DNA of 63,621 nt, the filler included, from Hausera hauseri (Eukaryota): NCBI GenBank assembly GCA_046269625.1. It is 12 parts of 12 records of this genome, joined end to end, with 100 filler letters (N's around TTAATTAATTAA, not from the genome) between each part and the next. Parts side by side here need not be neighbours in the genome. Positions count along the whole stretch, not along the records: positions 29,894 to 34,269 come from JBJURY010610332.1; 11 more parts are not named here. One strand, given 5' to 3'. The position numbers and the translations under genes are program-made. The notes beneath the pieces were generated by a model that saw only the letters and a list, made by a program, of their open reading frames with translations, ran no database searches and was not told where the DNA came from. The stretch's first letter is position 1. Every line of letters begins with the position of its first letter. Below, piece by piece: positions 11,455-62,631 of the stretch.

Positions 11455-12185
11455 CGAATAAAAAAGGATGATTTAGTGCTTCATCTGGATCAATTATCAA
11501 CATTTTTTGCGGTAGGTCAAGAAATTTCTAATAATCGGCAGGAGAATAACCGGGTACATTTCATCGACGGCCGTGAGGCTCACCGGTATTAAAACCTATT
11601 ATACCACTCCATTTCCTACTAGATACCCCTTGGAATGCAATTTTTTTGTTCTTTTTACGATGAACTTTAGGTCGATAAATATATTTATTTGGCGTCGAAT
11701 TGCATGAAAATCTTTCAAAATATCTTAGTCCTTTCTTTCCTCTGTCTATCACATTGAGCGGTGGAATTTCAACAACTTCTAGAATTCTCAAAATTTGTTC
11801 ATGCTCAAACTGTTCTATAAACATAGGTTGTTCAATGTGGAGTTCAGCCCTAACGACCACGTCTATGGCATGCGAATAATCGAGATTGAGAATTATTTCC
11901 GAAGACTGATAAAATCTGGATTGAATGTAATAATATATGCGACGCTTTGTATGACATGAACTACCAAAGTCAACGACTTTTATGGCTGATCGTCGAGGAT
12001 GAAGCAGAAGAATGTTTTCAGTCTTGAGATCGCAATGTATAATTTGAACTTGAGTCTTTGCGACAAAAACCAGGGCCCGACAAATTTGTTGAGAGAACTT
12101 CCTAGTAAGGTTTAACGAAACACCGCGGAAATTTGTGTTTTTAAGCAATTCATATAAGGTATACGTTAGCAGCTCAAAGTATAAT
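11455..12185 (-). pseudogene. DYRK1A: DYRK1A/minibrain kinase fragment (C-lobe only), degenerate
   Basis: FELL..TLYELLKNTNFRGVSLNLTRKFSQQ, IIHCDLKTENILL, DFGSSC, YIQSRFY, GEPHGRR*, then YSPADY*KFLDL. N-lobe absent, MWSLGC segment deleted, stops present. Confidence 0.9.
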
Positions 12186-13489
12186 TTTCAACTGCATTCA
12201 TTTTTAGCCTGCCCAGTAGTATCTCCAGCAAATGGTTTGTAGATTCTGCTTAAATCCTCGAATCGCAAGATCGGGGGCCCGCCTATGGGCCCAACGCGGC
12301 TACAACGGACGCCCAGCCATGCTTGACCAAATAGGCCAAAGGGTACCGGCCGCTGTGGGCACCACACAGAGAAATTTATAAACAATCAGTTATGCAATTT
12401 CGAATATTCAAATGGAAATGCGCAAGCTGTTTTTCCCCAGTCAACTCTTCATTACCATCGGCAGTCCATTCATTTATTTCAGCATCCAACACTTGATAAT
12501 TCTCAGCTTCATTGTTGTATTAATCAAGCAAGAAAACAAGCCATTCCTCAGGAAGTTCAACCTCAAAGTACTGTCTGTGTGGTGCCTTCGTGCGTTGAGG
12601 CACCTTGGCCTATTTCGTCTGGACAAAATCACGCGCGTTTGCTTCGTCCCGGTTGCACCATTTTCCGTGTCTTGCTTCCTCCCTCGGATGGCTTTGATGC
12701 AGTGACATTCGGTCAGTATGGACAATTTAACGATCATTTTGTTTGGAACCACCTCAAAACGAATTAAAATTTCCCGTTATGGATTTTCAAATCATTGCAG
12801 GATTAAAATGAATTAGAATTCGTCTCCGACTCACCCTATCTAGTAATTGATGACGCTAAAATAACCACAAGATCAAATCAATCACGGAGAATGTTTCGCA
12901 ATCAAAATGATCAAAATCATCAATCTGAGGAAACAGTGAAATTCATCAGGGTCCATTTTCCCTCAGCCAATTGATGCATTTTAAAACAAGTTTTGTTTAT
13001 AAGAAGAAAATGAAAATTCTTTCTCACATTTGCTTCAACGCTTCTAGGTGTGTGGTTCGGAATTGCATTTAAAGTCAAATATGAGAATTCCTATGCTGCT
13101 AGTTGTTCATTTTTATCCGTGCTCTATCAATGATTATTCATGTTCAGTACATTCGAAGTTTTGAAAATTCATACATATCACATCAGACACCGTGTTTGAT
13201 TGACAGTTTTTGGTTTTGTTTTTTTTACATCTTACCTAGTTCGCTACTGACGACCAGTTTAATAATTATTCTTCTGAAATATATCAGAAAATTCAGTTCT
13301 TGCTAGACAAATGTCGTTCTCTCATTTCCACAGCAGTTCTCTCTTTCTCCGTGGTCCCAAATTTATTTTTTTGCAAAAATTTATAAAACNNNNNNNNNNN
13401 NNNNNNNNNNNNNNNNNNNNNNNNNNNNNNNNNTTAATTAATTAANNNNNNNNNNNNNNNNNNNNNNNNNNNNNNNNNNNNNNNNNNNN

Positions 13490-16400
13490 TAGATTTGCAA
13501 CTTCTACAAATTTTGCATGGCGCAGAAACACGAGGAGCAGAATTGCCACAGTGTAATGCAGCATTACTTTGGATACCAACACCATAGGACTCAATACTAC
13601 GTATGTCCTGCATGTGAGTAGTGTGCCGGACCGGTTACGAGGAATTTTACAACCAACATAAACAACGTATGGATTCGTTCACAAAATCGAAGAAAGAAAT
13701 ATTCAACAGTAATATGCTAATGACGACAAGTGTCCCAAAAGCAAATCAGATGTGAGGTTCCTATGCTTATTGCACATCCAAAGCACATAATCCGCAAAAG
13801 TGTCATGAAACGATGCAGCGGTAGTATGGACATATCCAAAAGGATCCAATATTACATATGTCCGGGATGCGAGACTGGATGTGGTGCAGATTACATACTG
13901 TTCTATTATGATCCCAAGCATCATTTGAGTCACTTCGCATCAAAATCAAAGAAGGCCATTTATAATGAGTAACATAATATTAATAAATCTGCTTCGCAGT
14001 ATGATGCACCGCAGTATGATGCTTCGCAATATTATGCTTTGCATTATCCCTCTGGATCTGGTACAGCAGCTGCAAAGCATATTATGGAATTGAAACGCGC
14101 AGTCGCATCATGAGCATCAGGCCCATCAGGCGCAGCAGCACTAGGCACGGCCATATCACGCGCACTGGCTCCATCAAAAAGCCAAAGACAGCGGCCAGTG
14201 GATGCGGCATCATTAAAGACAAAATGCGGCAGATATGTTATTGAGGCAACTGATCAAATAACCCTCCGAGAGTTCCTCTTATACACAAAGGAAGAAACAG
14301 AGGGGATTCTTCAGTACAACATGGCTGAGCTCAAAGCCCTTAAGGTGAATATGAAACTGGAGGCCACATACATCAATGTTGATATCGAAGAATCCAAAAG
14401 TGCCTTCAGGACCAAAAATAGACCCATACTAGGAAAACGGCAATATAGTGGAATGACTTAATGAGGAACATAGGAAGCTGATCCGTGAAGCCGATGAGAG
14501 CCAGGATAAGAAGAGTGGATGAACTCTGGCAACCATACAGAGACTGAAAATGTATGTGCACAAGTACTCTCCAATGCGGGGCAGCTCCTATATACAGCTT
14601 TCAGACTGGATCGTTAATAAAAAGGCATGCATCAATGTCCTTAATGATGACAACAAGTGTCTCATGTATGCTATTTTATGTAAACTCGCACGGGATCAAA
14701 AACATGCAGCAGATTGAGTTTGGATATATAAGGATGTACAGCACAACTATGACTTCCAGTATATCACATTCCCTCCATCCATAGATGAAGTCAAGAAGTT
14801 CAGTCGAATTAACATGTCCATCAACATTATTGGATTGGATAATGGGGACAAATTCTATCCCCTGCATGTATGCGATGTTGAATTGGAAGATCATAGAGAT
14901 ATGCTCCTGCTAGACGATGGAGAAAAGAAACATTATGTTTGGATCAAGAACTTTGAGTGTCTAGTCAGATCCCAAATGACGAAACACACAACAAGAATAG
15001 AAATATGCAAACGATGCTTTGCCCATTTCAGCAGCAAGTTAACTGTGGAGAAGCTGAAGGAGCACAAGATGTACTGTGACAGCAATTACTGCATCAGGCC
15101 AGAATTCCCCAAGGAGGACTACATTGAATTCAAGGAGTTCGAGAAGAAGATCAAGGTCCCAATAGTAATCTATTGCTACTTTGAAACTATTCTCAGGCCA
15201 GTTCACAGCTGCAGCCCTATTCCTCAACATAGCAGCACAACGGCATACCAATATCATGAACTCTCATCATATTGCATGTATGCCAAAGAACTGGACAATG
15301 AACCATTTTTATTCAGAGGTCCAGGTGCAGCAGAACATTTTATGAAACGACTTGAAGACATGGCTCATATGCTTGAAAACATGCTTCAGCAACTTAAGGA
15401 TAATATGAGCATGTCAAAGCAGCAAGAATAAGAATGGCTCAAGGCAACAATATGTTACTTGTGCGACAAGTCCTTCACCGAGGATAATCATAAAGTCAGG
15501 GATCATTGCCATTTTACAGGCAAATATGGAGGTGCAGCATGCAACAACTGCAATCTGCGTTGCAAAACATGCACATATGTGCCCGTGGTGTTCCACAATC
15601 TCAGTGGATATGATCTCCACTTCATTGTTCGGGAACTGGGCAACATTGATGGAAACATTGATGTCATTTCCAATAGTGAGGAAAAATACATCACTTTCAC
15701 TAAGCATGTTGGAAGAATCAGGCTTCGCTTCATAGACAGTTTCAGTTTCATGTTGTCTTCACTGGATAGTTTAGTGAAAAACCTCCCTGCCGAAGAACTC
15801 AAGGAGACGAAGCGATTCTTTCCCACTAACTTTGACTTAGTTAAAAGGAAAGGAGTGTTTCCCTACGACTATATAACATCATGGGAACACTGGATGAGAC
15901 CTCATTACCGCGCAAGGATGGTATTTATAGCCAGTTGTTGGACTGTGATATCAATAATGAGAATTACCAGCATACTCAGAACGTCTGACAGGCATTCCAT
16001 TGCAGGACAATAGTGGAATACAGCGACGTATACCTCAAGACGGACGTGCTGCTTGTGACAGATGTCTTTGAGAGTTTCAGGGATGTTACAATGAAGAGCC
16101 ATGCATTGGATCCGGCTCATTTCTTTACGGCTCCAGGGATGAGTTGGGCAGCAATGCTGCAGTATACTAGTATTAGGCTGCAGATCATTAAGGATTATGA
16201 TATGATCTTTATGATCGAGCGATTCATTAAAGACGGAATATGCCAGACCATTCATCGGTATAATGAGGCCAATAACAAGTATATGGCCGAATACGACTCA
16301 ACAAAGTAATCCTCGTGTATATCATACATGGATGTCAACAACTTGTATGGATTGGCAATGAGCGTCTCATTGCCATATGATAACTTCAAATGGGTTGAGA

Positions 16401-17491
16401 ATCCTGAAAATATCCATATATTGGACCTAGATTCCACTGGAGATACGGCCTACATACTGGAGGTAGATATGGAATATTCGGCTTCTATACGCGCAAGGCA
16501 TTAACAGCTGCCTTTCCTCCCTTAGAGCGGGTCTCCGCCCCATGGAAAGCAGAGAAAGCTGCTCTGTCATCTGGATAATAGGGAGAAGTATGTAGTCCAC
16601 TACATCAATCTCCAGCATGCAGATAGACATGGACTTCGTATTACCAATATCCATGGGGCCCTGGAGTTCAGCCAGTCCATGTGGCTGCAGTCATACATAG
16701 ATCTCAATACGAAGCTGCGGACAAATGTTAAGAACGACTTTGAGAAAGACCAGTTTAAACTATATAACAACAGCGTTTTTGACAAGACCATGGAGAATAT
16801 CCGCAACAGGATCAACATCGAGCTGGTATGTGACTGGAAGCGAGCAAAGAAGATCATTGCCAAGCTTAACTTCCACAGCAGCACAATATATACGGAGAAC
16901 TTGGTAGGCATCCATATGCTAAAAACAGCATTGGTATTCAACAAGCAATATTGTATCTATCAAAGACCCTAATGTATAGATTCTATTACGATATAGTGGT
17001 CCCCAAGTTCAAGTCCATGCAGCTGATGTATATGTAAACCGATAGTTTCATCTATCAGATCCATACAGAGGACATTTATAAGGACTTTGCCGAATTGGTC
17101 CAACATATAGATACCTCGGATAATCCGAGGGAACATCCGAACTATTCAATGCCAACAAAGTCCTAGGGAAATTCAAAGACGAAGTGAATGGAGCAATCAC
17201 CTCGAGAAATGTGGCTCTCAGATCTAAAATGTATGCCCTAGATGCATGTAGTCAGATCAGAAAGAGAGCCAATGGCGTTCAAAGAGCGAACTTAGGCAAG
17301 ATCACTTTTGTGGATTATGAGACTTCTGCATGAGCAGACTCACATCATCGGAAATGAGAAGGATCCAATCTAAGGACCATAACATCCAAACAGTAACTCT
17401 GCATAAGAAAAGCCTACATTGGATAGATGAAAAGAGGCGGATCCTGAGTATTTGAATCCATACACTACCTCACGGACTTGTGGCACTGTAA
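13490..17491 (+). mobile_element. Polinton/Maverick-type protein-primed family B DNA polymerase pseudogene, copy 1, with a Cys/His-rich N-terminal region
   Basis: GSSYIQL..WIVNKKACINVLNDDNKC, HYVWIKN, DHCHFTGKYGGAACNNCNL, FHNLSGYD (ExoII), KGVFPYDY, YLKTDV (ExoIII), YMDVNNLYG (motif A), KLYNNSVFDKT (motif B), YM*TDS (motif C), LGKFKDE. Many stops and frameshifts. Confidence 0.9.
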
Positions 17492-17666
17492 ACATTCTTA
17501 TTGTTAATAAATGTTGTATAAAAATATCGTGTTGTCTTCTTGATCAAGTAATGTGGGATATATGATNNNNNNNNNNNNNNNNNNNNNNNNNNNNNNNNNN
17601 NNNNNNNNNNTTAATTAATTAANNNNNNNNNNNNNNNNNNNNNNNNNNNNNNNNNNNNNNNNNNNN

Positions 17667-20600
17667 CGTTCGTTCGTTCGTTCGTTCGTTCGTTCGTTCG
17701 TTCGTTCGTTCGTTCGTTCGTTCGTTCGTTCGTTCGTTCCTTCTTTCATTCGTTCATTCGTTCGTTCGTTCTTTTTTTTGTTCCTTCGATCATTTGTTCC
17801 TTCGTTCCTTTGTTCCTTCGATCATTCGTTCCTTCGTTCCTTCGTTCCTCGTTCCTTCGTTCCTTCTTTCCTCCGTTAGTTCGATCTTTCGCTCCTGCAA
17901 TCGTTCTTTCTTTCGTTAGTTCGTTCGTTCTTTTATTCATTCGTTCGTCCGTTCCTTCGTTCGTTCGTTCTTTCATTCGTTCTTTCGTTCCTTCCTTTTT
18001 TCATTCTTTCATTCGTTCGTTCGTTCGTTCGTTCTTTCCTTTGTTCCTTCGATCATTCTTTCCTTCGTTCGTCGTTCCTTCGTTCATTCTTTCCTCCGTT
18101 AGTTTGATCTTTCGCTCCTGCGATGGTTCTTTCTTTCGTTAGTTCGTTCGGTCTTTCATTCCTTCGTTCGTCCGTTCCTTCGTTCTTTCTTTCGTTCTTT
18201 CGGTCTTTCCCGCGTTCATTCGTTCGTACTTTCGATCTTTCTTTCGTTCGCTCGTTCGTTCGTTCATTCCTTCGTTCCTTCGTTCTTTTGATCGTTCCTT
18301 CCTTCCTTTGTTCCTTCGTTCGTTCGTTCGCTCTTGCATTTCTTCTTTCGTCCGTTCGTTCATTTGCCCTTTCATTCCTTCGTTCGTTCGTTCGTTCTTT
18401 CGTTCGTTCTATCGTTCCTTCCATCGTTCGTTCGTTGGATCTTACGTTAATTCTTTCTTTCGTTCGTTCTTTCGTTCCATCGTACGTTCTTTCGTTCGTT
18501 CGTTCCTTCGTTCGTTCCTTCGTTCGTTCGTTTGTCCCTTTGTTCTTTCCTTCGTTCGTTGGTTCTTTCATTCGGTCGTTTGTTCGTTCGATCTTTCTTT
18601 CTTTTGTTCGTTCGTTTCTTCGTTTGTTCCTTCGTTTGTTCCTTCGTTCATTCGTTCCTTCGTACCTTGGTTCTTTCGTTTTTAGTCCCTTCATTCGTTC
18701 TTTCTTTCACTCCCTCCTTCCTTCCCTCCTTCGTTCCCTTGTTCGTTCCCTCGATCGTTCTTTCGTTCGTTCGTTCAATCGTTCGTTCTTTCCTTTGTTC
18801 CTTCGATAATTTGTTCCTTCGTTCCTTTGTTCCTTCGATCATTCGTTCCTTCGTTCGTTTGTTGTTTCGTTCGTTCTTTCGATCGTTCATTCCTACCTTT
18901 GTTCCTTCGTTCGTTCGTTCGGCCGTTCGTTCCTTCTTTCCCTCGTTCATTCTTTCGTTCGTTCGTTTGTTTTTTCGTCCGATCGTTCGTTCGTTCTTTC
19001 CTTCGTTCCTTCGGTCCTTTGATATGTCGTTCATTCTTTCGATCATACTTTCCTTCCTTTGTTCCTTCGTTCGATCTTTCTTTCGTTCGTTCTTTCGTTC
19101 TTTCCTTCGTTCGCTCGTTACTTCGTTCTTTCTTTCATTCGTCTGTTTGTTCCTACCTTCGTTCTTTCTTCCGTTCGTTCGTTCTTTCGTTCCTTCGTTC
19201 TTTCGTTTCTCCGTTCTTCCGCTCGTTCTTTCGTTCGTTCTTTCGTTCGTTCGTTTTTTCGTTCGTCCGTTCTTTCATTCGTTCTTTCGCTCGCTCGTTC
19301 GTTCTTTCGTTCCTTCGTTCTTTCGTTCTTTGCCTCGTTCGTTTGTTCGTTCGTCCGGTCGTTCTTTCCTTGGTTCGTTCGTTCGTTCTTTCGTTCGTTC
19401 GTTCGTTCATTCTTTCTTTCTTTCATTCTTTCGTTCGTCCGTTCGTTCGTTCTTTCGATCGTTCCTTTATTTTTCTTTCGTTCTTTCTTTCCGTCGTTCC
19501 TTCGTTCCTTCGTTCCTTCGTTTGTTCGTGCGTTCGTTCGTTCGTTCTTTCTTTCCTTCTTTCTTTCGTTCTTTCGTTCTTTTATTCGTACCTTCGTTCC
19601 TTCGTTCTTTCGTTCATTCGTTCATTCATTCATTCGTTTTATCGTTCATTCAATCGTTCTTTCTTTCGCTAGTTCGTTCGTACATTCGTTCATTCCTTCG
19701 TTCGTTTGTTCCTTTGATCCTTCTTTCCTTCGTTCCTTCATTCTTTCTTTCGTTCGTTTGTGCGTTCCTTCGTTCGTTCTTTTTATCATTCATTCCTTCG
19801 TTCTTTCGTTACTTTTTTCCTTCGATCGTTCTTTCCTTCATTTCTTCGTTCCTTCTTTCCTTGTACCTTCTTTGCTTCCTTCATTCTTTGTTCGTTCCTT
19901 CGTTCCTTCGCTCCTTCCTTCTTTCGTTCCTTCGTTCATTCATTCTTTCGTACGTTTGTTCTTTCCTTCGTTCTTTCCTTCGTTCATTCGCTATTTCGTT
20001 CGTTCGTTCTTTCGTTCGTTCGTTCTTTCTTTCGTACTTTCGTTCTTTCTTTCTTTCTTTCTTTACTTCATTTGTTCATTCTTTCATTCTTTCGTTCGTT
20101 CGTTCGTTCGTTCGTTCATTCGTTCTTTTTTTAGTTCCTTATTTCCTTCGTTCGTTCTTTCCTTCCTTCCTTCGTTCCTCCGTTCTTTCTGTTGTTCCTT
20201 CGTTCGTTCCTTCATTCCTTCTTTCGTTTCTTCATTGGTTCCTTCGTTCTTTCGTTCTTTCCTTCGTTCTTTTCTTCGTTCGTTCGTTCTCTCGTTCATT
20301 CTTTCATTTGTTCCTTCGTTTGTTCGATCCTTCGTTCGTTTGTTCTTTCGTTCCTTCGTTTGTTCCTTCGTTTCTCAGTTCTTTCGTTCCTTCGTTCCTT
20401 CCTTCTTTCCTTCGTTCTCTCTTTCGCTCTTTCTTTCGTACGTTCACTCGTTTTTTCCCTCTTTCTTTCGTTCGTTCGTTAGTGCTTTCTTTCTTTCGTT
20501 ACTTCTTTCCTTCGTTCCTTCTGTCCTTCGTTCCTTTGTTCCTTCGTTCGTTCGTTCCTTCTTTCGTTCTTTCTTTCGTTCGTTCCTTCTTTCGTTCGTT

Positions 20601-21626
20601 CTTTCTTTCTTTCTTTCGTTCGTTCGTTTGTTCGTTCGTTCATTCGTTCTTTCGTTCGTTCCTTCTTTTGATCGCCCGTTATTTCTTTCGTTCTTTCGTT
20701 TGTTTGTTCGTTCTTTTATTCTTTCCTTCGTTCTTTCGTTCGGTCCTTCCTTCGTTCGGTCGTTCATTCGTTCGTTCTTTCGTTCTTTCTTTCTTTCGTT
20801 CGTTTGTGCGTTCGTTCGTTCCTTCGTTCGTTCTTTCGTTCGTTCCTGCTTTCTATCTTTCGTTCGTTCCTTCGTTCGTTCTTTCGCTCGTTCTTTCGTT
20901 CTTTCGTTCGTTCTTTCGTTCGTTCGTTCTTTCGTTTGATCTTTCGTTCGTTCGTTCGTACGTTCTTTCAATCGTTCCCTCGTTCGTTCCTTCTTTCTTT
21001 CGTTCGTTCATTCGTTCTTTCGTTCGCTCTTTAGTTCTTTCGTTCATTCTTTCATTCTTTCTTTCGTTCGTTCTTTCGTACATTCGTTCGTTCCTTCTTT
21101 CGTTCGTTCGTTCGTTCTTTCATTCTTTCGTTCATTCGTTCGTTCGTTCGTTCGTTCGTTCTTTCTCTCGTTCTTTCCTTCGATCGTTCGTTCGTTCTTT
21201 CGTTCGTTCTTTCGTTCTTTCGTTCGTTAGTTCGTTCGTTCATGCTTTCATTCATTCGTTCGTTCCTTCGTTCCTTCGATCGCTCGTTCGTTCGTTCCTT
21301 CGTTCCTTCGATCGTTCGTTCGTTCGTTCGTTCGTTCCTTCTTTCCTTCGTTTGTTCGTTCGTTCGTTTTTTCGTTCGTTCTTTCTTTCTTTCGTTACTT
21401 CTTTCCTTCGTTCCTTCTGTCCTTCGTTTGTTCGTTCGTTCCTTCTTTCGTTCGTTCTTTCTTTCTTTCGTTCGTTCGTTCATTCCTTCGTTCGTTCGTT
21501 CGTTCTTTCGTTCTTTCGTTCGTTCTTTCGTTCGTTCGTTCTTTCGTTCGATCTTTCGTTCGTTCGTTCGTACGTTCTTTCAATCGTTCCCTCGTTCGTT
21601 CCTTCTTTCTTTCGTTCGTTCATTCG
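17667..21626 (+). repeat. 4-kb degenerate tetranucleotide array (TTCG/TTCC/TTCT/TTCA)n that fills the whole contig
   Basis: Pure (TTCG)n for ~70 bp at the contig start, then variant units. Higher-order duplications with periods of ~223 bp (17891/18114) and ~612 bp (20959/21571). Confidence 0.97.
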
Positions 21627-22419: not shown

Positions 22420-23901
22420 TCAATTCATTTCCAAACACGGTTCATTGCAAAACGAATTCTGAAAATCTGACGTTGACAACGGCTCATCTTCCGTATTGAT
22501 GACATCATCGGTATTGATTACCGAATTGTCTTCCACAGAAATGCTATTGTCTCTCTCCTCTGATGATAACACTTCATCTTTAACGGACGACAGATTGAAA
22601 CCATTTTCACAGCTTCCAGAATTGTCGAACAATTCGTTGTAGTTCGTTGTAATATCCGACTGATCGATCACTAACGTATACGGCGACAGTTTCCCATTGG
22701 TGTCCAATGAATCGGTCGGTGTCTGAACGGCAAGTTCGTTCTTGACGTCAATCGTTGACATTTCCATGAGTTTACTGTTCTGCATTCGTTCAAGATATTC
22801 CAGACATTCGGATGACGATAATTTCACAGTGATGTTTGATTTCGGCTCACAGCCGGGATGGCTGACTTCGATATGTCGTACGAGATGATCTTTCCGATAA
22901 TACGCTTTACTGCACACGTTACAAATGAACGGTTTAAAGCCGACGTGTTTCAACGAATGTCGTTGGAGATTCGATCGTTGCGTAAAGTTCGCACTGCAAA
23001 ACGTACAGCGAAACGCCCGATGATCGGAGAACGTGTGTTTGCAGAGAGCATTCAACGAATTGAACTGTAATTTACACTGGTTACAATTGAATACTTTACT
23101 CGACTTTTTTTGACCGGATATCGGTGTCAATTTACGTGCCTTAACTATCGTCGTTTGATTGCCGATTGAAGGTTTGTTCGTTGGCCACATCGGCTGGTTC
23201 GGATTGAAATATTTCTCCACTTTAACGTCGTTCTCCATCGGATTGTGTTTCTCCTGTTTGAACAGGGTGAGATCGAGTCCGTTCGTCGTGTCCATTGCCG
23301 ACGAATCTGGGGGGATTCGACACGGTTTCTCCGCTTTCCGTTTACGGGAAACGGATTCGTTGTTAGGATTTTCAATGGGCGTAAATCTCGGTGTATTAAT
23401 GGGAATCTGTTGAAATTGATGGATGGAATTTATGTTGGTGTTGTTGTTAATCATGTTCGTATTTCCATCGGATGTCGAATTCAATCGAGATAAAGCTGAT
23501 GTTGATAAATTGAGAAATGCCTGAAGATCTTCAACAGTACCCGGAAAAACTGATGGTTGCGGTAGAAAAACTCCGGCACTATTCGATATGGCTGTGGCGG
23601 TTGTGATGGGATTGAACACCGATGTTGATAAAACATTCGTCAACAGCGAATTCAAGTTCTGATTATTCGCAACATTAGTATTGTTATTATTATTGATATT
23701 CGTATCATTTAATACAATCGATCGTTTCGGATCATTGTCAGATTCGATCAAAATGATCGCATTAACTCGAATGGTTTTCTTCATCGGTAACGATTGATAA
23801 ATACTCTGCAAAATTCGTTCTTTAATTATCGTTTCCTCGTCGGGATTTTCTGGTGTTTTCGGTATCAATTTAACGGTATTGTTAATTGAAAATGGAAACA
23901 T
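22420..23901 (-). CDS. C2H2 zinc-finger transcription factor (3 fingers), 493-aa ORF; possibly the last exon of a longer gene
   Basis: Fingers CNQC..HTFSDH, CTFC..HSLKH and CNVC..HIEVSH with linker HVGFKPF; basic RKRK motif; intact frame. TTTTTTCGTATTTAG immediately before the ATG resembles a splice acceptor. Confidence 0.9.
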   Translation of the reverse strand: MFPFSINNTVKLIPKTPENPDEETIIKERILQSIYQSLPMKKTIRVNAIILIESDNDPKRSIVLNDTNINNNNNTNVANNQNLNSLLTNVLSTSVFNPITTATAISNSAGVFLPQPSVFPGTVEDLQAFLNLSTSALSRLNSTSDGNTNMINNNTNINSIHQFQQIPINTPRFTPIENPNNESVSRKRKAEKPCRIPPDSSAMDTTNGLDLTLFKQEKHNPMENDVKVEKYFNPNQPMWPTNKPSIGNQTTIVKARKLTPISGQKKSSKVFNCNQCKLQFNSLNALCKHTFSDHRAFRCTFCSANFTQRSNLQRHSLKHVGFKPFICNVCSKAYYRKDHLVRHIEVSHPGCEPKSNITVKLSSSECLEYLERMQNSKLMEMSTIDVKNELAVQTPTDSLDTNGKLSPYTLVIDQSDITTNYNELFDNSGSCENGFNLSSVKDEVLSSEERDNSISVEDNSVINTDDVINTEDEPLSTSDFQNSFCNEPCLEMN

Positions 23902-29893: not shown

Positions 29894-30441
29894 GCTAAGC
29901 CAGGTTTTGCTAGAATTTTCGCGATCGATAAAATATTTGGTGCACTGAGAAGAAGTGTGTTTGGCTGGCGGGATGGAAGATGTATAACTGGTGAAAGTAG
30001 ATGGCGTGGTTACGGTCGTTGATTTTTTGTGAAAAGTAAAAGATGATGGTTTAGAGGTAGTCTTGTAAGTAGTGTCAATGGTGGGCAAAGAATCCATGCC
30101 ACCACGAATGCGAATGTGTACATGAGTAATGACATAACGGGATGAAGGAACAAAAAGGTGACGAAAATCGACGTTAATTACAGGTAGGTGAAAATCGGAA
30201 ATATTACAGAAACGTAGTACATAATGGTGTAAGAAATGTGCGTCAATAGAATACGTTGTATTGAGTGTGAGTAATTGACGATTATTGACGAGGAATAAAA
30301 TGGAAGGCGTCGGTGTAGATCCTAATGGCTGACGTGGTGATGGAACGGACCATGGCGTGGGACCTACTGACATAGGACAGACGGTCGGATAGTGTTCACA
30401 CTGTGACGTACCTGAAAATCCGGGATAACCAAATCCCCTCC
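29894..30441 (-). mobile_element. 5' part of the same Gypsy family, copy 2: PBS-like site, UBL domain (30098-30304), S/T-rich linker and Gag start
   Basis: SILFLVNNRQLLTLN...ISDFHL...YVITHVHIRIRGG|MDSLPT..., then IDRENSSKTWL, homologous to copy-1 Gag LDSQNSTQTWL. TGGTTATCCCGGA at 30419-30431 resembles the tRNA-Trp PBS TGGTGACCCCGA. Confidence 0.8.
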
Positions 30442-32479
30442 AAAAACTCTCGGTTGAAGAAATAACTTTAGGGGTGATGAAAGTATTATGGAATTATGTG
30501 GACAAATATGTGAATTTTCAAAGTATAGGGACTTTATGCGACAACCACTTCTGGGAGCTCTGTTAAGAAGGGGCGGTGTTGTGTCAACGGTGGTAATATA
30601 ATGAACGAAAACATGTGATAAACAAGACATAGGAATCGTTAAAAAAAGCAAAATAAAAAAATTGTTGCCAGACGAATAGTATACTATGACAAATCTCACC
30701 CCATCGTGCACTGGTTTCTCCACGGTTGGCAGTATCGTTTTGCATTGTGTGCACAGCAAATCGACTTTCTCACGTCGTGTCGTCCTACGAGCGACCTGCG
30801 TACTCAACGGCTCTTTAAACAAACCCACCAGTTTGTTATATGTTGTCTGGTTTTCATCGAATCTTGTCTGCTTGGCACCTTTGACAGACGTCTGTAATCG
30901 ATCTTTTTACTTACTCCACTCTGCAGTCTAAAACGGATAACCTCACTGGTCAACGGCAGTTTTTGTTGTTGTTGCAGCTGCTGTTTCATCTGCGATGGTC
31001 TCAGAGGCCCTTTATTACAGACTTTGATGTCGATTAAACGATTGGATGATTCCGCATGGTGACTTAGTCGATTCTTAAACAATGGGCACCTATAAGATGG
31101 ATCGGACTCCATATAGCCCATCGAAACCTTAAGATTTTCAGTAGAAAAGCTGGACAATATAAGCAGTACTGTGGAATAGTTCATTGAACAGCCGAATGAA
31201 ACATCGGACATTATTTTACACTTTTTACCATTTATTTTATGCTGTTTTCAAAATTTTGCAATACTATCACATGTTTCCTTTTATCTATAGGTATTGATCT
31301 GTAGTAGTAACCGAGAATGTCTCGGAAAAATCTGTTGGAGTTTATCAGTAATCGCTTCTCGCCAATTCGAGTTAGAGCATTTTGTACTTTATTATATAGT
31401 ATAAATGTTGCCGATTTAACAGGGCCCACATGTAAATGATCGAGGAACTGAACTACATGAATGCGGTATGTTGACGCCGGATTTTCATTAGGAAATGTTT
31501 TAGTGTTGAACAATATGTAAATTTCTGACGTTTTTGACAACCTGAGAAAATGTTTTGATAGAACAAGATAAAGTACTTGGGCATGTCGAACACCGTCTCA
31601 CTCGACCTTCAACGCATGTTCCATTGGCAAACAGTAAAATGACGTATCCATCAAAATTAAATTGTTTGTCTGGATGATTCCACAACATTCGTATCGAATG
31701 ATGATTGGTAATAACATTGATATTGGTAACACATCGACTAACTGTCTTTAATGAAGAACAGTGAGGAACGATACAAAAATCTCATAGATGTTTTCTGTAA
31801 CACCACGGATAATTAAAGCGTTCGTAAAGCATACATTTTCCGATGGGGTGTTTAACCTTGAGTTCTGATCCAGATTACTATTAAGGGATATATATCTTTT
31901 GATAGTTGTTCAGCGTATACCGATGTCATTTGAATAGAAACAATCATATGGCAATGGTAATCTGAAAATAGAATGTTGTACGAATTGACGAAATATGTGT
32001 AACCATCAACAGTCCAGACCTCCGCAGAAGGAGCGTACCATGTAATATCCGACCCGCCCAACATGATACGATATTGCTCGTCATTACTATTAAGTTCGTA
32101 CTCATTTAAATTGGCACGATGCAATGTCTGACAGATTTTCTGACGTAACGTGTGACATCTTATTGATTTTGGGAGAAAAATAACTTTATTTTCAGGACGT
32201 TTTGAGTTGTGTTTAAAAACAAAATCGGGTCTTTCGCGATATTTGGCGACTTTTTTGTGTCAAGTTATTTCCAATACATTTGTATCGACAGCTTTCACCA
32301 AGAACTCGAATGATTTATATTTTCTTGTATGTGAAATAACGGCGCGATCCAGTTTCAATGCCAAGAATATTCGACCAATTATTTAACGGATATATATCAA
32401 CCATATATATTGAATAGGCTTTGAAAGTGATGATCGGAAATACAAAGACATATTATTCGTAGTTAGAATACTGGCAATT

Positions 32480-34260
32480 TTATTTCCAGACTCATTATTG
32501 GTTGAACTTATCGACTCATTATTCAACTCTTTCATTTCTTCAAACTTCTTATCGAATTTTTCTTGACAGTTACAAATAGGCATAGTTGTTGCAACACAGT
32601 AGTGAACCATTCGTTTCGACTGATTAACAAATATAGGATTGTATCCTGAACTGATCCTCTGTCTATTACTAAAGGGAGGATCAGTTCCAAGTATAGGTTG
32701 TATTAAAGTAGATTCAATATTATTACTCGTACTATCCACGGAGGATATTCCACGCTTTGATGCGGAAATTAGAAGTTTTCCTATCATCTGGTTTGGTCTA
32801 GAACCAAACAAAGGAGACGTCTAAATATGATCCGGGCTACAACAACGATCAGTAACTTCGTTACTACTACTACTTGCTGTTTGTTTCACCGAATATTGTG
32901 GGGATATGAGCTTTTCGTGTTTCGAACTTATGATATCAACATTTTGATAAGGAGATCGTTTGAATTTATTTGCATTACATGTTTTATTATGAGAAACATT
33001 CACTTTATATTTTCTTTTTCTAGCTCTCTTACGTGAAGAAAGCCGTTCTTCTTTAGGGTCAAATTTGCTGGACTCTGTTGATGAAAGATCCATTTTTATT
33101 CTTTCACTATGTGAAGTATATCCAGCAGATGAAAGTTTAGAGAGTTTCACAGAAGGCTTTCAATTTCTAATCAAGGATTTTGTTGAAACTCAGGGAGATC
33201 TTAAAACTGATGATTTTGCAGAAAAATTATAACAGAGAGATTTCATATTTACAGAAGATGAGGAATTATCTGAATCATCATCACTTTCTTCCGATGAATC
33301 TGATTCTGATTCTGAGCGCATATTAATTTTTTACTTGATCTCCCTGATGTGCTCTTGTAACTTGAGACTGATTTATCTGCGCTGATGTTATTTATGCGTC
33401 GTTTCGGTAATGGTCCACCGTTCCTTGACGATGTCCGCTTTTTACCTTTGGAAATTATAATTGATTTTGTGAATTTTCTTGATGGTATTTTAACATTGAT
33501 TATTTCTGGTGGAAGAATTGGTTTCCGGCTTCTTTCTGAAGTTGATGACCTCCTGCTTGAAAGACTATTCAATAAAGAATAATTACTTCCATTGGCTAAG
33601 TTGTGATCAGTTATTGAAATACCACTAGCACAACGTTCAGCGAGATAAATCTCATCCGTATATTCTTCTTCAGTTGGTGGTAAATCACTTTCCCCTGAGG
33701 AATGAGTACAACAGCCTTGTTCAAGTTTTTCTTTCAACTTTTTGACTTCATTCCATGATCGATCGAGTCCAATTCCAGGTTTTATATCAATTTCTTCCGG
33801 CCTCAGATGAAAGGATTTAATGTCATGCTTTTTATAAACGATCTATTGTGATTCCATCCGAAAAATCTAACCTCATATCCGTCATTTCTATCCAATAGTA
33901 ATTTCGCGGGCCAAAAATATAAACTTCCAACTTGTCGAGCCCATGTCAATTTGTGAGATGGTTGACATGGTTTGGTAACCCATTCCGCCATTTTCGCTTT
34001 TGTATTTATGTAACAATCAGCACACAATTCAACTTCGCAAATTTCATCTTTAACTTCTCGGAGCAAAACACGAGCTGGGTCAGCTTTATCACTATAAATT
34101 CCATGTAAAATATATACGTCATGAACAATAATGTCTGCATCTTCAACAAAATCATTTAGATAAACATATCGACCATCCTTTATTTTACGTTGAATTAATT
34201 CCAAATCACAATATCTATACACGAGATATTCGTTTTTAACGATTTCTCCTCGAAATACAA
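32480..34260 (-). pseudogene. ZMYND11: ZMYND11/BS69-like chromatin reader (bromo-zinc-PWWP) fragment, frameshifted, no MYND finger seen
   Basis: DLELIQRKIKDGRY..F..D...IVH, ELCADCY, WVTKPCQPSHKLTWAR, YFWPAKLL, YEVRFFG..HNRS, then a low-complexity S/K-rich region and CNCQEKF across several frames. Confidence 0.8.
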
Positions 34261-34369
34261 TGGTTAACANNNNNNNNNNNNNNNNNNNNNNNNNNNNNNN
34301 NNNNNNNNNNNNNTTAATTAATTAANNNNNNNNNNNNNNNNNNNNNNNNNNNNNNNNNNNNNNNNNNNN

Positions 34370-37300
34370 TTGCCATTTTCACACACGATTTGGATAATCC
34401 GCCTACAAATGTTATCTTGGTTGCCAATTCGACAAGCCATCCGCAAATATAAAAATGCAAGACACTTGCATTTATCACATTAATTTCGGTCCAGAGGCAA
34501 AAATCTGTCAACCCGGCTGCAAATTTTACAAGCCATCAAAAAACTAAATGGTCCCAGACGACCAACGGCATGTCGACTGGAAACCCAATAACCACAACTG
34601 CTGTATACAAATAGCGAACGCATTGTCAGTGTAATTTTCACTCTCGAGGCGGAGCCACTACACTCTGACATCTCGATTTTCTAATCGACATTGGTGCAGC
34701 TTTATCGCTGACACCTAGTGCATACGCTAGACCTACGATGGTCTCGAATGCATCGCTCAAAGCTGCCAATGGCACGCGAATAANNNNNNNNNNAGGTACA
34801 CTGTACCTACAATTTCATCTACAAGGCCGACCATACGCCTGGTCATTCATATTGGCCGACGTCATGCAACCAATCCTTGGTTCTGACTTCCTAGATCACT
34901 ACGATGTCACAGTTGATTGCCGAAATCAACAACTCACCAGCGGGAGCAATCCACTACCTCCACCCGCATTCACACTAACCATAAACGCGGTCACGGGCAT
35001 AACAATGACAAATCCCATTGATATCGCACCATTGCTCCAAGCGCAATACCCTAACTTTTTGAAACGCTCAACAGAACCAACACAGAAAGAGGTGAAAACT
35101 TCACACTTTGTAATCACATCATGTAATAGACCGATTTGGCAACCCCGGATGGAGCTTGACTCTGTCAACAGAGCAGCTGCGAAAGCCGAATTCCGACACC
35201 TCGAAGTAGCAGGCATCACACGCCGCTCTAAATCGCTATGGGCATCACCATTGCATATGGTTCTCAAAAAGGACTGTTCATACCGGCCTTGTGGTGACTA
35301 TAAAATGTTAAATAACGTCACCATCCACGATTCATACCCAACGCCGTTGATAACCTACATATTGTATCGCCCACATGGTGCCGCAATATTCAGCACAATC
35401 GATCTAGGAAGGGCATACCAATATATCCCAGTTGTTACCAAAGACATTCAAAAAACGGCCGTAATAACTCCTATTGGTTTGTTCGAGTATCTACGCATGC
35501 TATTCCACTTACGGAATGCAAGTCAAACATTCCAACGCCACATAGACCAAGTCCTCATCGACATGTCTTATAGGTGACATATTGATTGCATCACCTGATA
35601 AAGCGACTCACAAAACACACCTCGAACATGTGTTTCATAGGTTGAATGATAACAACTTACAGTTGTGCTGGGACCCGATCGTTAGTTGGGGAATCTGGCA
35701 AAAGTCCGATCCGAAATCAAATTAGTGTAAATAAGAGGGTGTGTGCATGTGCACGTACATAGAATGTATGTATGTATGTATATGTATGTGTGTAAAATTA
35801 ATTGGGTTATGGAGGGCAGAGTTTGTTTAAGGGAGGCATAGGTGTCTGAATATAAAGTTATGTATGGGAAATAGTCCACATCCCGGAAACTGAGAATTAA
35901 TTCAGATGATTAATAATTAATTCACGTGCTATAAGCCCATATATCGATTCATGTATCTACCATCTCTCTGAGTTTCTCACCCAGGGCTGGAGACCTGGCG
36001 ACGGCCCATTAATGGTAAATCCAAGTAGAAATGAATAAAAAAATCAAAATAACAAAAATCAATTAATTCAAATATTTAAAATTTAAAAATTCTAAGTTAA
36101 AAGCGACAATGAAAATAGAAATTGAGAGATCCGTGTTGGATAAAAGAATCAAAGTAAACTCGAGGGAATCGTGCCATATATTTTGTAAATCACAGTGGAA
36201 TTCAATTTATGTGATACTGAATGCTATAAAACAAAGAATCAAGGAACAAGTATTAAAAAAATGTGAAAGAAAAGCAAAATTGACGAGATTAAGTATAAAA
36301 TATTGGAGTTATATTATCATATGTCAAACTTACAACGTCAAACCGACATTTACAGATTGTCCTTTTATCACCAGAGAAACCTTTCACGAATTATTCCATC
36401 AAAAGATTCAAATACCACTAAATTTACGATTGATGACAAGTCTGACATATATATTACAAAGTCACTAGAATTCTATTGATTGTTTCTATTTCATACCGAG
36501 CGAAAGTTCATTGGAATTTTCTCACATTGCGTTACGATTTGCAAAAAGATGTCAGTGATATGGGAAATATAGCAAAGTTCACCACCGTCATAAAAGTCTA
36601 GTTGGAAGGTCAAGCTTGACTTATCAATCGTTCAAATTCCACTCAGGTCTTACGAAATTTATTATTGTGGACATCAGTGATCGTTACGAAATTCTTTGGG
36701 GGATCAACAATGCTCTCCTCTATGTCTGGGAGTAACGAGAATTCGGGTTGAAAAATCGTATTCGAGACGTCATGGTAGCCGATGCCGTCTTTGTGGGGAT
36801 CTGGTTATCGATGGTGGGATAGAAATTAGAACGATTATTTTGGTAAGAATTAGTTTAAATAATATCATTAGTTACTGTTATTTTGGTTTTACGGGTATCG
36901 GCTTGGAATATAAATAGGGGAAACCGTTGGTATGTCTGAAAGGGTAGGGGCTGGTAGACCGGAATATGAAAAAGTGGTGAGTATGCCTGGTGGAGTCATA
37001 ATGGTCGGGTCGGAGAATAAGATCGAGGGTAGACCTTCCCTTCAGGTGATTGAATGTATCCGACGAAAGAAATTGGTACCGAAAATTAAAGGTTCAAAGG
37101 AAAGAAGAGGGTAATGAGAGGTGAGATAATTTGTAGAATAGATTCTGAGATAAATGGGCCCAGTAAGAAACTTAGATAGATACTCGCGTCGTGCGGTGAA
37201 TATCGTTCTAGTCCATGAAATATTTAAAAAAAAACGGTGTGTGGTTAGAGTTGAATTGTTACATATCTTTTATGTAGAGTCTCCAAGGTGAACATAAACA

Positions 37301-44670: not shown

Positions 44671-45946
44671 CGAGTTATACACCAAAAACAGAATTACATA
44701 ATCTAACTTTAAATAAAACAACAAATTTATATATAACACTTAGAAATATTTTGAAGTCTATTAAATTTTGTTTTTATCAAGAAAAGTTTTCTTCCTTAAA
44801 TAATTAAAATTTTTCTGAAAATACTATCCTGTGAAAACTTAATTCTACATCGAATGGTGTATAAATTAACTTATTTTGTTTTTCAAGTTGTGACGCAGCA
44901 CAAAACTGCACAACTTTTTGTACTTTTTTACACATATGAGCACATACACACGACCACCGAGCAGCATTTAAAATATCAATAAATCATTTATAATTTTACC
45001 ATTCATAATTTCCTCGGGAATCTGATTAACATTGGAAGCCATCTTTGAACGGATTATCGTGACGTTTTCTTGAAGAGACACTAGATTATTTTCTATACTC
45101 GAATTAACTCAAGCAACCAGATGTCAAGCTATTACCTTGAATCTAAAAGTTGTTTTCTGCGCTGGATTACACGTAAAAATATATGAGAGAGCAAGTTAGT
45201 TCTTTTGTTACAGGTCGCGTATTTATATCTGATTGTTAGTTCGAATGACGTCAATTTAATTCCAAAATCCAATTCTCGAACGTCATTCGAATTTTCAATT
45301 CCAATGTTCAATATTCAATGAATTAAATAATCTGATTTTTAATATTGACCTTATATGAAGTCAATTGAATAATTCATTAACCTTACATAACATCAACCGA
45401 ATAATCCGATTTCAAATGTTAACTTTTCGATATAATTTAAATAATCTCGATCAATTTAAATAATTTCGATCAATTTAAATAGTTTCGANNNNNNNNNNNN
45501 NNNNNNNNNNNNNNNNNNNNNNNNNNNNNNNNTTAATTAATTAANNNNNNNNNNNNNNNNNNNNNNNNNNNNNNNNNNNNNNNNNNNNGTTTCGCAAAAT
45601 TTATTATTTTAAATTTATGTCGATAAACAAAATCCTAAAAATGACCTTGAAAAATTTAATACGAAATTATTATCCACAATGTTTACTTTGTATTTTCAAA
45701 AATTTTCTCAAGCAAACCAAATGTGTAAAATATTTCATGATCATAAAAAATCAAAAATTAATGATTTTGTGAAATTTGTTCACAAACAATAACAACGATT
45801 AAATTTTAATAAAAAATTTTGTTTGTAAAATTTCGAAATTTTCATTTAAAAAAATTTTTTTAGCACATTTAATTTTGAATATTTTGGACAAAAAATTTAT
45901 TTTGTTCCAAAATTCGTAATTTTTTCTATCATAAAATATTTATAGT

Positions 45947-48900
45947 ATGTCCAGCAATCGCCACAGACCGAATTATAGACAACACACTGGTGATCCAACT
46001 CCATTTAACGAACGGGGTATCGGCGATATATCCGCAATCCAGCGAGAACAAAAAGAGCGAGAATACAAACGGAAATACGGAACCGATAACGTAAGTAACA
46101 AACGTCGACGGAGAGATGATGAACGGCATAAAGAATGGGAAGAGAGTGATTGTCGACGATCGTATGATAATGAGCGAATACTTACACCGCGAACTGATCG
46201 GACAAAAATCAATACACCATCTTGTACACTGTGGGATGCGGATGATGATGAAAATGGCGGTTCAGTTAGAACACCGAGAAGACGCGACCCACAGTCCGAT
46301 AGTTGGGATGAAGATAAACATGTGTTCAAACAACCTAATCCTGTGATAAAGGGAAAGGATTTTACACCATCGGTTCGTTCAGACCGATCAAATTGGTCTC
46401 CTAACACAGTTACCGAAGAACTTGATAGAGATTGGTACAATCTGGATGATGGGGTGGAATACAATCCATTCAGCAACGTATCCGATGAACTGACCCATAA
46501 AAAGAAGCAGCAACTTCAACAACAATTGTCGAAAGGGGCTCGCAGTTTGAGAGATGTGAAAGAACGCGAATTTCAAGAGTTCAATCGGGCCTACGAGGAG
46601 AAGAAACTTCTCGATTCTGGAGCAGTAGTAAAACGGTCATTCAACGTCGAAATCGATAATGAAGATACCGGACAAGATTTAATCCATATTCACGTTCACA
46701 ACATTTTACCTCCATTTCTTGACGGACGAATTGTATTTACTAAACAATTCGAACCTATTGTGCCAGTGAAGGATGAAAATAGTGAAATGGCCAAAATTGC
46801 TAAAAATGGCAGCCAAACTGTGAAATATTTTCGGGACCTGAAAGATAAACTGAAGTCACAGAAAAGGAGTTTGGATCTAACTGGTACGTCATTGGGACGA
46901 CTTATTGGAATGGAGACTAAGGATAAAGTTGATAATTGGAACGAATCGAACTATAAAGATGCCATGAAATACTCAGATAAAATGGACCAGGAAGTTACAA
47001 AAGAGGACAGTGAGAAGATAAAAATTACAAGGAAAACTCTGCCGATATTCAAAGTTCGAGATCGATTAGTGAAGTTCATCAGAGAGAATCAAATACTGGT
47101 CATTATTGGAGAAACTGGCAGTGGGAAAACGACACAGTTGGCCCAGTACCTTTATGAAGAAGGATTCAGTCAAAATGGTATCATCGGCTGTACTCAACCT
47201 CGTCGAGTTGCTGCAGTGTCTGTGGCCAAACGAGTGGCTGATGAAGTTGGCACGAAACTTGGAGGTAAAGTTGGTTATTCGATCAGATTCGAGGACTGTA
47301 AAAGTGATGAAACAGTAATCAAATACATGACCGATGGTATCCTACTAAGAGAGAGTCTGAAGGACTCCGATTTAGATGCATATTCGGTCATTATTATGGA
47401 CGAAGCCCACGAACGAACATTAAACACAGATATTCTATTCGGCATCCTTAAAGAGATCGTTCAAAGGCGATCAGATCTTCGATTGATTGTGACATCGGCT
47501 ACCATGGACGCCGAGAAATTTTCCAAGTTTTTTGGAAATTGCCCAACATACACAATCCCCGGTCGAACTTATCCAGTAGATATAAAATACGAAAAGACTA
47601 GTATTCTCGATCCAGTCAGTGCTGCTGTAAATAAGGCAGTCGATACACACATTGGGACTGATACAGATAGTGGCGATATTCTCGTCTTCATGTCGGGTCA
47701 GGAAGATGTCGAGGTAACTTGTGAGAAAATTCGAGAATCATTGGAACAACTTGCTGATAAAAATCCGCCAGAGTTGAAGGTCGAGCCGCTATATTCGCAG
47801 TTGTCGAGTGATCGACAGTCAGAAGTATTCAAGGTAAATAAGGGAGGACCACGGCGATGTATCGTATCTACGAATATTGCCGAAACATCTGTAACACTCG
47901 ATGGTATTCGATATGTCATAGATAATGGGTACTGCAAAATGAAAGTGTATAATTCCCGTATTGGCATGGATTCCCTACAAATGTACCCCATAAGTCAGGC
48001 CAGTTCAAATCAACGTGCTGGTCGAGCAGGTAGAACTGGTCCAGGAATATGCTATCGATTGTATACAATTAAACAATACACCGAAGATATGTTATGCATG
48101 AGTGTTCCCGAAATCCAAAGAACGAATTTAACGAATGTTGTCCTGTTATTGAAGTCACTAAATGTCGACGACTTGATGAAATTTAATTTTATGGATTCTC
48201 CACCTCAAGACAATATCCTGAATTCCATGTACCAGTTATGGATGTTGGGTGCTCTAGACTCCACAGGGAAACTCACAAAAGTTGGTCGATCAATGGCCGA
48301 ATTCCCACTCGATCCATCTCTATCCAAAATGCTCATGACATCTGTTGAACACGATTGTTCGGAAGAAATGCTAACAATCGTGTCAATGCTCAGTGTTCCG
48401 TCCATTTTCTCCAGACCAATGGGACATCAAGAAGAAGCTGATAACGCCCATGAAAAATTCAAAGTTGCACAATCCGATCATTTAACATTGTTGAATGTGT
48501 ATAATACATGGCGTCGAGAAGCATATTCATCGAACTTCTGTAAGAAATATTTCATTCATTACAAGTCCATAAAGCGAGTGAGAGAAGTTCGACAACAGCT
48601 GAAAGAAATCATGCAGAAAATGGACATGGGACTGAGATCGACAGATAATTTCGATATAGTTCGATACTGCATCTGTTCGGCTTATTTCAGTCAGGCCTGT
48701 AAATGGAAAGGTCTGGGCGAATATACAAACTTACGTAGCGGAGTTGTGTGTCACCTTCACCCCACAAGTTCGTTGTTTAGTATGGCATTCAATGCCGACT
48801 ATGTGGTATACCACGAACTCCTTATGACAACTAAGGAATACATGAATTATGTGACCCATGTGGATGCCAGATGGCTCGCTGAACTCGGTAGTATGTTCTA

Positions 48901-49108: not shown

Positions 49109-49596
49109 GTTTCTTTTAGAAATACATATTTTTTTCGAATAGTTTTGTTGTCAAGGAAAATAACAGTGCAATTTACCTGGGATACAAATATTTGAGCAAA
49201 AAAATCGAATATCCGTTTGTTTAACTGTTGCTATGGATCTGGACTACATTTAAACAAACGGATAATCGATTTATTACTGATTTCAACGTATGACTCTTAA
49301 TGTGAGTTACCATTGGAAATTATTATCATTTAAACAAACAAGATTTGGCTTTGAATTGACAAGATGAGTTAGTAAAATCAAAATACTTCTCAATGCGTGT
49401 GTAGGCTGGTTGACCAATTAGTTAACAATTTTGTGTGCGTGTTACTTAGTCTGATAAAACAAAACTGCATTTCTAATATTGATTTTCACTCTGATTATTG
49501 TTTGGTTGAATCAAACTATAGTGCTAACAAGCAATTTAGTAACCATTACAGAACTTCTAAACTTTGTTTTCACGGATACGAATTAATATTGTTGGA

Positions 49597-62421: not shown

Positions 62422-62631
62422 ATATTTAAATATCGTTATTCTTTTTTAACAAATCTTATAAAATATATCGTCTTGTCTTCTTCATAAAGTAATGTGGGAT
62501 ATAGGATAAGGCCAAGTAAAACTACGTAACGACTGTGTAGGATAAGGCCAACAAATTTCAACACATTTATTTCATAACAATATAACTTTGGCATAACGCT
62601 AAACACTTTTTATAATGTGTGTGCATGTGCT

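Follow-up and report, generated by a model that had tools for sequence, protein, structure and literature searches.

A ubiquitin-fold domain ending in Gly-Gly lies ahead of Gag in a clade of Ty3/gypsy retrotransposons and is a likely substrate of host deubiquitinases

Results

An open frame joins a ubiquitin-like domain to Gag

The window, a stretch of 63,621 nucleotides from Hausera hauseri, consists of 12 contigs joined by N-spacers and contains animal genes together with transposon pieces. Contig 7 carries a decayed Ty3/gypsy retrotransposon copy (copy 2), of which the 5' part is present; its frame of 160 codons runs stop-free on the minus strand from 30373 to 29894, the end of the contig. 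The original prediction had quoted this 160-residue frame, and we recovered it exactly, on the minus strand and up to the N-spacer that closes contig 7. The plus-strand reading of 29894-30373 contains many stops.

In this frame we found a ubiquitin-like (UBL) domain, the tail RIRGG, a linker and the first 17 residues of a Ty3/gypsy Gag, in that order. The UBL domain, a predicted beta-grasp, covers residues 22-92 and ends in RIRGG (30098-30310, minus strand; AF2 model with a 21-row alignment, fold matches and profile). Codon comparison, family tallies and profile-to-ubiquitin alignment place RIRGG (30098-30112, minus strand) at ubiquitin positions 72-76, with a predicted cut after the second Gly. 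The Ser/Thr/Pro-rich linker (29945-30097, minus strand; pLDDT 42-60) starts with MDS, the predicted N-terminus of a released Gag, and leads into the Gag core (29894-29944, minus strand), only about 17 residues of which precede the contig end. We identified the end of the frame as Gag by the F-F/Y-L-D...W motif, which opens the core in relatives and aligns with theirs, and by a blastp match to the relative P0235 (E 3e-11 over 136 residues). The claim that UBL and Gag form one frame also held, copy 2 being uninterrupted from the ATG through RIRGG and the linker to the start of the Gag core. From base composition alone, a stop-free leader would arise by chance at about 0.02 per copy for copies 1 and 2, and in both the Gag frame is open and the other frames carry 2-4 stops over the leader. 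Copy 2 itself is probably no longer functional.

Other element copies and window content

The pol region is visible only in copies 1 and 3; that of copy 2 would lie beyond the contig end. Copy 1 (contig 2) has a UBL ending in RIRGG (7493-7717, minus strand), followed by degraded gag, protease, RT and RNase H (4137-7492, minus strand) up to the point where integrase would begin. No integrase Pfam match was found in the last 360 bases of contig 2, which ends at 4137. The copy 1 frame is open from an ATG at 7843 across the junction and meets a stop 33 codons on, before the Gag core. Cys-His motifs lie at 6617 and 6542, the one at 6542 being CHCC. With stops read as X, protease (weak, E 0.004), RT (69.6 bits) and RNase H (42.9 and 51.9 bits) were matched in order. 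Copy 3 (contig 11), absent from the original prediction, is a UBL-Gag-protease-RT stretch at 50762-53303 on the minus strand. It has the best-preserved UBL body (52968-53207, minus strand), with a tail of RLQDG in which GG is lost, and degraded gag, protease and the start of RT (50762-52967, minus strand; CHCC at 52048). The order gag-protease-RT-RNase H, the criterion for Ty3/gypsy (Metaviridae), was found in copy 1, and gag-protease-RT in copy 3. Judged by Gag motif and gene order, the element is a Ty3/gypsy with a CsRn1-like Gag, whose published signature is CHCC, CX2HX9CX3C (PMC2582038).

Contig 8 holds a fourth element piece (34370-35620, plus strand), in which the C-terminal part of Gag, with two CHCC motifs, is followed by protease and RT; the 5' part lies beyond the contig. 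An isolated gypsy RT fragment on contig 9 (44267-44656, plus strand), 66-68% identical to copies 1 and 3, sits among dispersed repeats. The string RIRGGGG at 53277 (plus strand), opposite the copy 3 leader, is probably a chance occurrence. We found no long direct repeats (paired LTRs) in contigs 2 or 7, both of which hold only 5' element parts. The window contains no tRNA gene for primer-site comparison, and neither a tRNA-Trp primer-binding site nor a 4-bp target-site duplication was located in its element copies.

Pieces of host genes were recognized by Pfam: a protein kinase upstream of copy 1 and on the same strand (11561-12187, minus), an FN3/Ig gene upstream of copy 3 and on the same strand (53491-54818, minus), C2H2 zinc fingers (22420-23901, minus) and a C-type lectin (2841-3437, minus). 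A bromodomain piece, also from a host gene, lies upstream of copy 2 on the same strand (33803-34267, minus). Contig 10 encodes an intron-free PRP16 helicase of 1053 aa (45935-49108, plus strand) with self-complementary flanks (45728-45941 and 49199-49275); it groups with three flatworm sequences on a long branch (FastTree, support 99). On this placement, and taking all contigs to stem from one organism, the host is probably a flatworm or some other animal that evolves fast. Two contigs (13490-17566 and 58429-62507) share 78% identity over 4.1 kb and resemble a decayed element of Polinton or related type; DNA polymerase B (PF03175) and endonuclease VII were matched at 15432-16013. Contig 4 (17667-21626) consists throughout of degenerate tandem repeats with long open frames, and matched no Pfam family.

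The start of the copy 2 frame

The open frame of copy 2 extends 40 codons further upstream than the ATG at 30373, to 30493, and is ATG-free between the two positions; frame and context scan place this leader at 30311-30493 (minus strand). The ATG at 30373 has a purine at neither -3 nor +4, and the MDS ATG has purines at both. The ATG at 30373, from which the original prediction started the frame, is thus probably not the natural or family start.

Further upstream, two overlapping open frames (31247-30807 and 30906-30367; 30364-31247, minus strand) lie inside a repeated region, and neither matched a Pfam family, a PDB chain or the leader of a relative. We placed 869 contigs of run X1 on contig 7. 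This run is possibly close to the source sample, is not independent, and has decayed copies mixed in. Its summed depth was 84-2645 over 29894-31207, with a local peak at the junction, versus 10-27 over 31208-33835; 29894 to about 31200 is clearly a repeated region, and depth here does not equal copy number. Of the 12 indels listed (28 more were recorded), at least 7 fall in the frame overlaps (near 30837-30879 and 30392-30402), all frame-shifting, and the one at 30879 occurs in more than half of the local run X1 depth. Since the frame-shifting indels cluster in the two overlaps, the upstream frames probably derive from a single long leader frame that is interrupted in copy 2 near 30879 and 30392-30402. 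This suggests that other copies have an unbroken leader of about 300 codons, although no single run X1 contig shows it. In addition, 25 run X1 contigs extend over the contig 7 ends. Just outside the high-depth region, a 121-codon frame (31235-31597, minus strand) part-matches the UBL profile described below (E 8e-4) and could be either another degenerate UBL or a UBL-domain exon of the host.

Copy 2 carries a damaged ubiquitin-like domain

Searched alone, copy 2 matched no Pfam family, and a word-based search found no homologue among longer proteins. An Atlas search gave a ubiquitin match for neither the copy 1 nor the copy 2 UBL. A PDB search with copy 2 returned weak PCNA rows, which we took as chance, and no ubiquitin rows. 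An independent UBL profile was built from 27 relatives, with the window copies excluded. Against 1198 window frames, this profile ranked copy 3 first (34.5 bits, E 1e-8) and copy 1 second (27 bits, E 8e-6), and copy 2 was absent among the listed matches, down to E of about 10. Its score of 5.9 bits was lower than that of all 27 relatives scored by leave-one-out (8.0-57.8 bits). In a shuffle test, 0/1000 shuffles reached the score of copy 2 with the tail and 22/1000 without it. Copy 2 is the most decayed UBL of those scored. Specifically, it lacks about five residues in the region of strands 3-4, near 30190. At 30189-30190, one run X1 contig carries 13 plus 2 extra bases and eight contigs diverge from copy 2, which fits an in-frame deletion in copy 2.

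The single-sequence model of copy 2 was poor (pLDDT 36), and AF2 with a 21-row family alignment gave pLDDT 71-91. The latter model has strands at 24-29 and 32-38, a helix at 45-56 and a strand at 80-87, a strand-strand-helix-strand order. The 50 Foldseek matches listed were all ubiquitin, ISG15, SUMO, NEDD8, FAT10 or UBL-domain structures (best E 0.015), with 8-19% structural identity to the model. VIA-align gave Z of at most 7.7 and rmsd 2.9 over 71 residues, a level that the tool calls common. Residues G91-G92 align to ubiquitin G75-G76. Copy 2 is therefore predicted to have a beta-grasp fold, in a model that leans on the alignment of the relatives since the single-sequence model was poor. 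Copy 2 thus belongs, in damaged form, to a true UBL family.

The junction is conserved at the protein level

RIRGGMDS is identical in copies 1 and 2, as the original prediction stated (RIRGG of copy 1 at 7507, minus strand). Four of its eight codons are identical between the copies, and the other four differ, all synonymously. For the nine codons up to and including GG, which precede the internal ATG, pS was 0.88 and pN 0.15 (Fisher p 0.002). The next 12 codons after GG gave pS 0.95 and pN 0.14, and ten codons further upstream, compared ungapped, gave 0.70 and 0.61; these windows were picked after the match was seen. The pairwise codon alignment proposed earlier thus showed a junction kept as protein, not DNA, and the synonymous changes, with pS 0.92 over 21 codons, rule out RNA structure or other DNA-level conservation. 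We infer from this pattern that a protease may recognize the junction.

The UBL bodies of copies 1 and 2 differ greatly, at 28% identity upstream of the junction. Their pairwise score of 44 was reached in 28/2000 shuffles, and the score of 86 downstream of MDS in 0/2000. The divergence claimed originally stands as an observation, part of it being decay of copy 2. The conserved signal does not include MDS: the family keeps [R/K]-[L/I]-x-G-G with a variable next residue, Met following GG in only 4/30 relatives.

Variants in run X1 weakly favour synonymous change in the tail, whereas the body shows no such preference. Of 65 variant rows, 40 were listed; none of these fell in the GG or ATG codons, and the synonymous to replacement ratio was 6:5 in the tail (p 0.04; transitions only, p 0.12) and 6:16 in the body, which equals the expectation without selection.

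The UBL-GG-Gag layout is family-wide

Run against 1.84 billion representative proteins, a search profile made from copies 1 and 2 matched 97, and the Gag core was located in 96 of them. This profile included the junction and could favour GG-bearing matches; most best-scoring stretches start downstream of it. GG lies within 75 aa before the Gag core in 31/36 relatives with at least 60 aa before the core, versus 1/113 control windows in Gag bodies. P0165, which had no UBL-profile score, was left out of the 31, giving 30 relatives for the tallies below. Pfam placed ubiquitin just before GG in 10/35 relatives scanned, two of them above the curated cut-off. The 21-row family profile, which includes the three window copies, matched 382 PDB sequences, and the 60 listed were ubiquitin, its fusions and ISG15. 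Its alignment to ubiquitin 6-76 is gap-free (E about 4e-6 for mono-ubiquitin). Median identity among relatives is 18% for UBL bodies and 32% for Gag cores.

In a quick tree of 91 Gag cores, from which 7 matches with short or weak cores were left out, 31/33 GG-bearing rows grouped in a single 37-row branch (support 95), whose remaining six rows are predictions that begin too near Gag to show a leader. The two further GG rows, P0179 and P0192, lie among classical DUF7041 Gags, and the UBL-GG-Gag device may have arisen more than once, with these two as a second Gag lineage. The CHCC motif CX2HX9CX3C is present in the Gag of 26/30 relatives and is doubled in most. All 19 clusters of relatives looked up were 'hypothetical' or unnamed proteins from ENA, JGI or Logan contigs, and the DNA of the relatives was not found among metagenome or viral contigs. 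The Gag of most full-length relatives (P0123-P0235) ends in Lys-Asn within the last few residues, an end that we presume to be expected at a slippery gag-pol frameshift site.

The tail and the residue after GG are restricted

Across the 30 relatives, the tail has Arg/Lys at ubiquitin position 72 (24/30), Leu/Ile at position 73 (29/30), a variable residue, Gly and Gly. The residue after GG was Ser in 13, Met in 4, Asn and Gly in 3 each, Ala and Thr in 2 each, and once each Val, Asp and Gln. Pro, Arg, Lys, His, Leu, Phe, Trp, Tyr and Ile never occurred there (0/30), yet they make up 37% of the linkers, which span 11-47 aa (p 0.003 over 13 tree groups). Pro after GG blocks deubiquitinase cleavage, and the other missing residues are N-degrons. 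This restriction and the kept tail fit a new N-terminus made by cleavage after GG.

Furthermore, no Met occurs between GG and 12 residues into the Gag core in 16/30 relatives, so that in these Gag lacks its own Met and must be made as a fusion. The Ile44 position is Thr, Ser or Cys in 22/27 relatives, and Val70 is kept in 2/30; the family shows neither the Ile44-Val70 hydrophobic patch nor the high identity to ubiquitin of conjugated modifiers. Since this surface is lost and the tail kept, the UBL would be a cleavable spacer and not a degradation tag or conjugated modifier.

Leaders of the relatives contain host-gene fragments

Leaders of the relatives reach 876 residues and, near-copies and one pair aside, show no relation to each other. 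In several protein predictions, partial domains of host genes stand in frame ahead of the UBL: CNOT1 and Rrp44 (P0123 and P0220), histone H2A (P0131 and P0230), SCC3 (P0143), 5'-nucleotidase (P0190 and P0234), RING (P0192) and arginine methyltransferase (P0235). Some of these leaders could be gene-caller joins, though P0123 (996 aa) occupies most of a 3,554-base contig. The motif [ML]VS[EG]V, chosen after it was sighted, was found in 6/30 leaders and no Gag body, with a single occurrence among 132,206 control residues. We take it to be a tRNA-Leu-type primer site translated in frame. The nucleotidase fragment of P0234 falls between this motif and the UBL, so this cargo would sit inside the element.

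Discussion

As a rule, the Gag of LTR retrotransposons is translated from an AUG of its own, and the protease of the element processes it. The sequences compared here suggest a different arrangement: in this clade, Gag is encoded after a ubiquitin-fold domain with a Gly-Gly end, from which a host deubiquitinase likely frees it, giving Gag a defined N-terminus. Translation would start far upstream, within the variable leader, and the deubiquitinase would cut after Gly-Gly during or soon after translation, the UBL acting as a cleavable spacer. Such cleavage would make Gag indifferent to what lies upstream, which would explain the long, unrelated leaders with host-gene fragments. The UBL is less than 20% identical to ubiquitin, and its recognition by a host deubiquitinase is not guaranteed. 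As a tentative extension, the LTR and 5' leader could form a translated cargo bay, with host fragments, primer site, diverged UBL and Gag in one frame; host deubiquitinases would free Gag, and any in-frame capture would be tolerated and carried along.

Other readings of the domain were weighed against release by a deubiquitinase. The UBL might stay on Gag as a folded N-terminal domain acting in trafficking, scaffolding or turnover, or be removed by the element's own aspartic protease, with GG a relic of ubiquitin origin. The element does have a protease, the UBL bodies are too divergent (median 18% identity) for sure deubiquitinase recognition, and no cleavage is described for the internal SUMO-like domain of Burro in the text available to us (PMC6431247). 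We nevertheless consider retention or self-processing unlikely, since GG and Leu73 persist while the body drifts and the residue after GG is restricted as expected of a new N-terminus. To our knowledge, uncleaved UBL domains such as those of RAD23 and Parkin lack a GG end.

Another reading accepts the cleavage and places the function in the released leader-UBL-GG, conjugated to host proteins or acting as a decoy of the host ubiquitin system, with the leader cargo as effector. Cleavage would yield a free GG end, Arg/Lys72 is kept in 24/30 relatives, and several leaders carry fragments of regulatory host genes (CNOT1, histone H2A, RING, arginine methyltransferase). However, the Ile44 and Val70 positions are polar, the leaders are mutually unrelated beyond near-copies and the fragments are partial domains, which makes an effector role improbable. 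For the subfamily of the window copies, the Met after GG could be the real Gag start, behind a decaying, dispensable UBL leader: it is present in copies 1 and 2 and in P0124, its ATG has the purines at -3 and +4 that the upstream ATG lacks, and the copy 2 UBL body is damaged. Both purines follow from the Gly and Asp codons, however, the codons upstream of this ATG are constrained as protein (pS 0.88 vs pN 0.15), and Ser or Thr takes the place of Met in P0123 and P0235, the other close relatives; we regard an internal start as very improbable.

If Gag is released by a host deubiquitinase, the element would work much like a ubiquitin-fusion precursor or a pestivirus ubiquitin processing signal. 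The cellular precursor fusions UBA52, RPS27A and FUBI-eS30 share the UBL-GG|partner layout, and in FUBI a diverged UBL is still cleaved. The top PDB matches of the family profile include the ubiquitin-S27a and -L40 fusions. In the element, by contrast, the UBL is fused to a capsid protein and, with a variable leader ahead of it, is internal. In pestiviruses, cellular ubiquitin C-terminal hydrolases are described as cutting ubiquitin from NS3 (PMC8310069). The cytopathogenic strains BVDV Osloss and CP Rit similarly carry captured ubiquitin before a viral protein as a processing signal, and extra host fragments can sit upstream of it, according to the available text of both reports (PMC8310069, PMC13517609). 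Their ubiquitin is near-native and stems from sporadic recent recombination, whereas the present UBL is highly diverged, has become fixed throughout a clade and stands before Gag, with cleavage predicted.

The nearest layout in the available literature is that of Burro/GYPSM1, a giant planarian gypsy with an internal SUMO-like domain behind Gag (PMC6431247). It is likewise a flatworm gypsy polyprotein with ubiquitin/SUMO-like and host-derived domains, but its Gag is N-terminal with CCHC knuckles, the SUMO-like domain lies between MATH and BCL-2, and the available text describes no GG junction before Gag (PMC6431247). As far as the available text goes, elements of the CsRn1 clade (CsRn1, PwRn1 and Anopheles AgCR; PMC2582038) share the CHCC Gag, the protease-RT-RNase H order and a flatworm-like host; in the present family, CHCC is doubled in most relatives, and Gag lies behind the UBL, often without its own Met. 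The main texts, as available, of PMC2582038, PMC12440569, PMC5408684 and PMC2774666 do not contain the word 'ubiquitin'. No UBL-GG-Gag retrotransposon was found in the literature available, a scope that leaves aside subscription journals, supplements, Repbase, Dfam and GyDB.

For annotation, 'ubiquitin domain' calls beside DUF7041 should be treated as element genes. If the proposed release is true, a Gag that often has no start codon and depends on an enzyme of the host ubiquitin system would be a novel form of host dependency and a novel point at which transposition can be controlled. It would also give retrotransposons a simple route to carry host-gene fragments without harm to Gag. Furthermore, the family would offer dozens of natural, highly diverged substrates that may show how little of ubiquitin a deubiquitinase needs.
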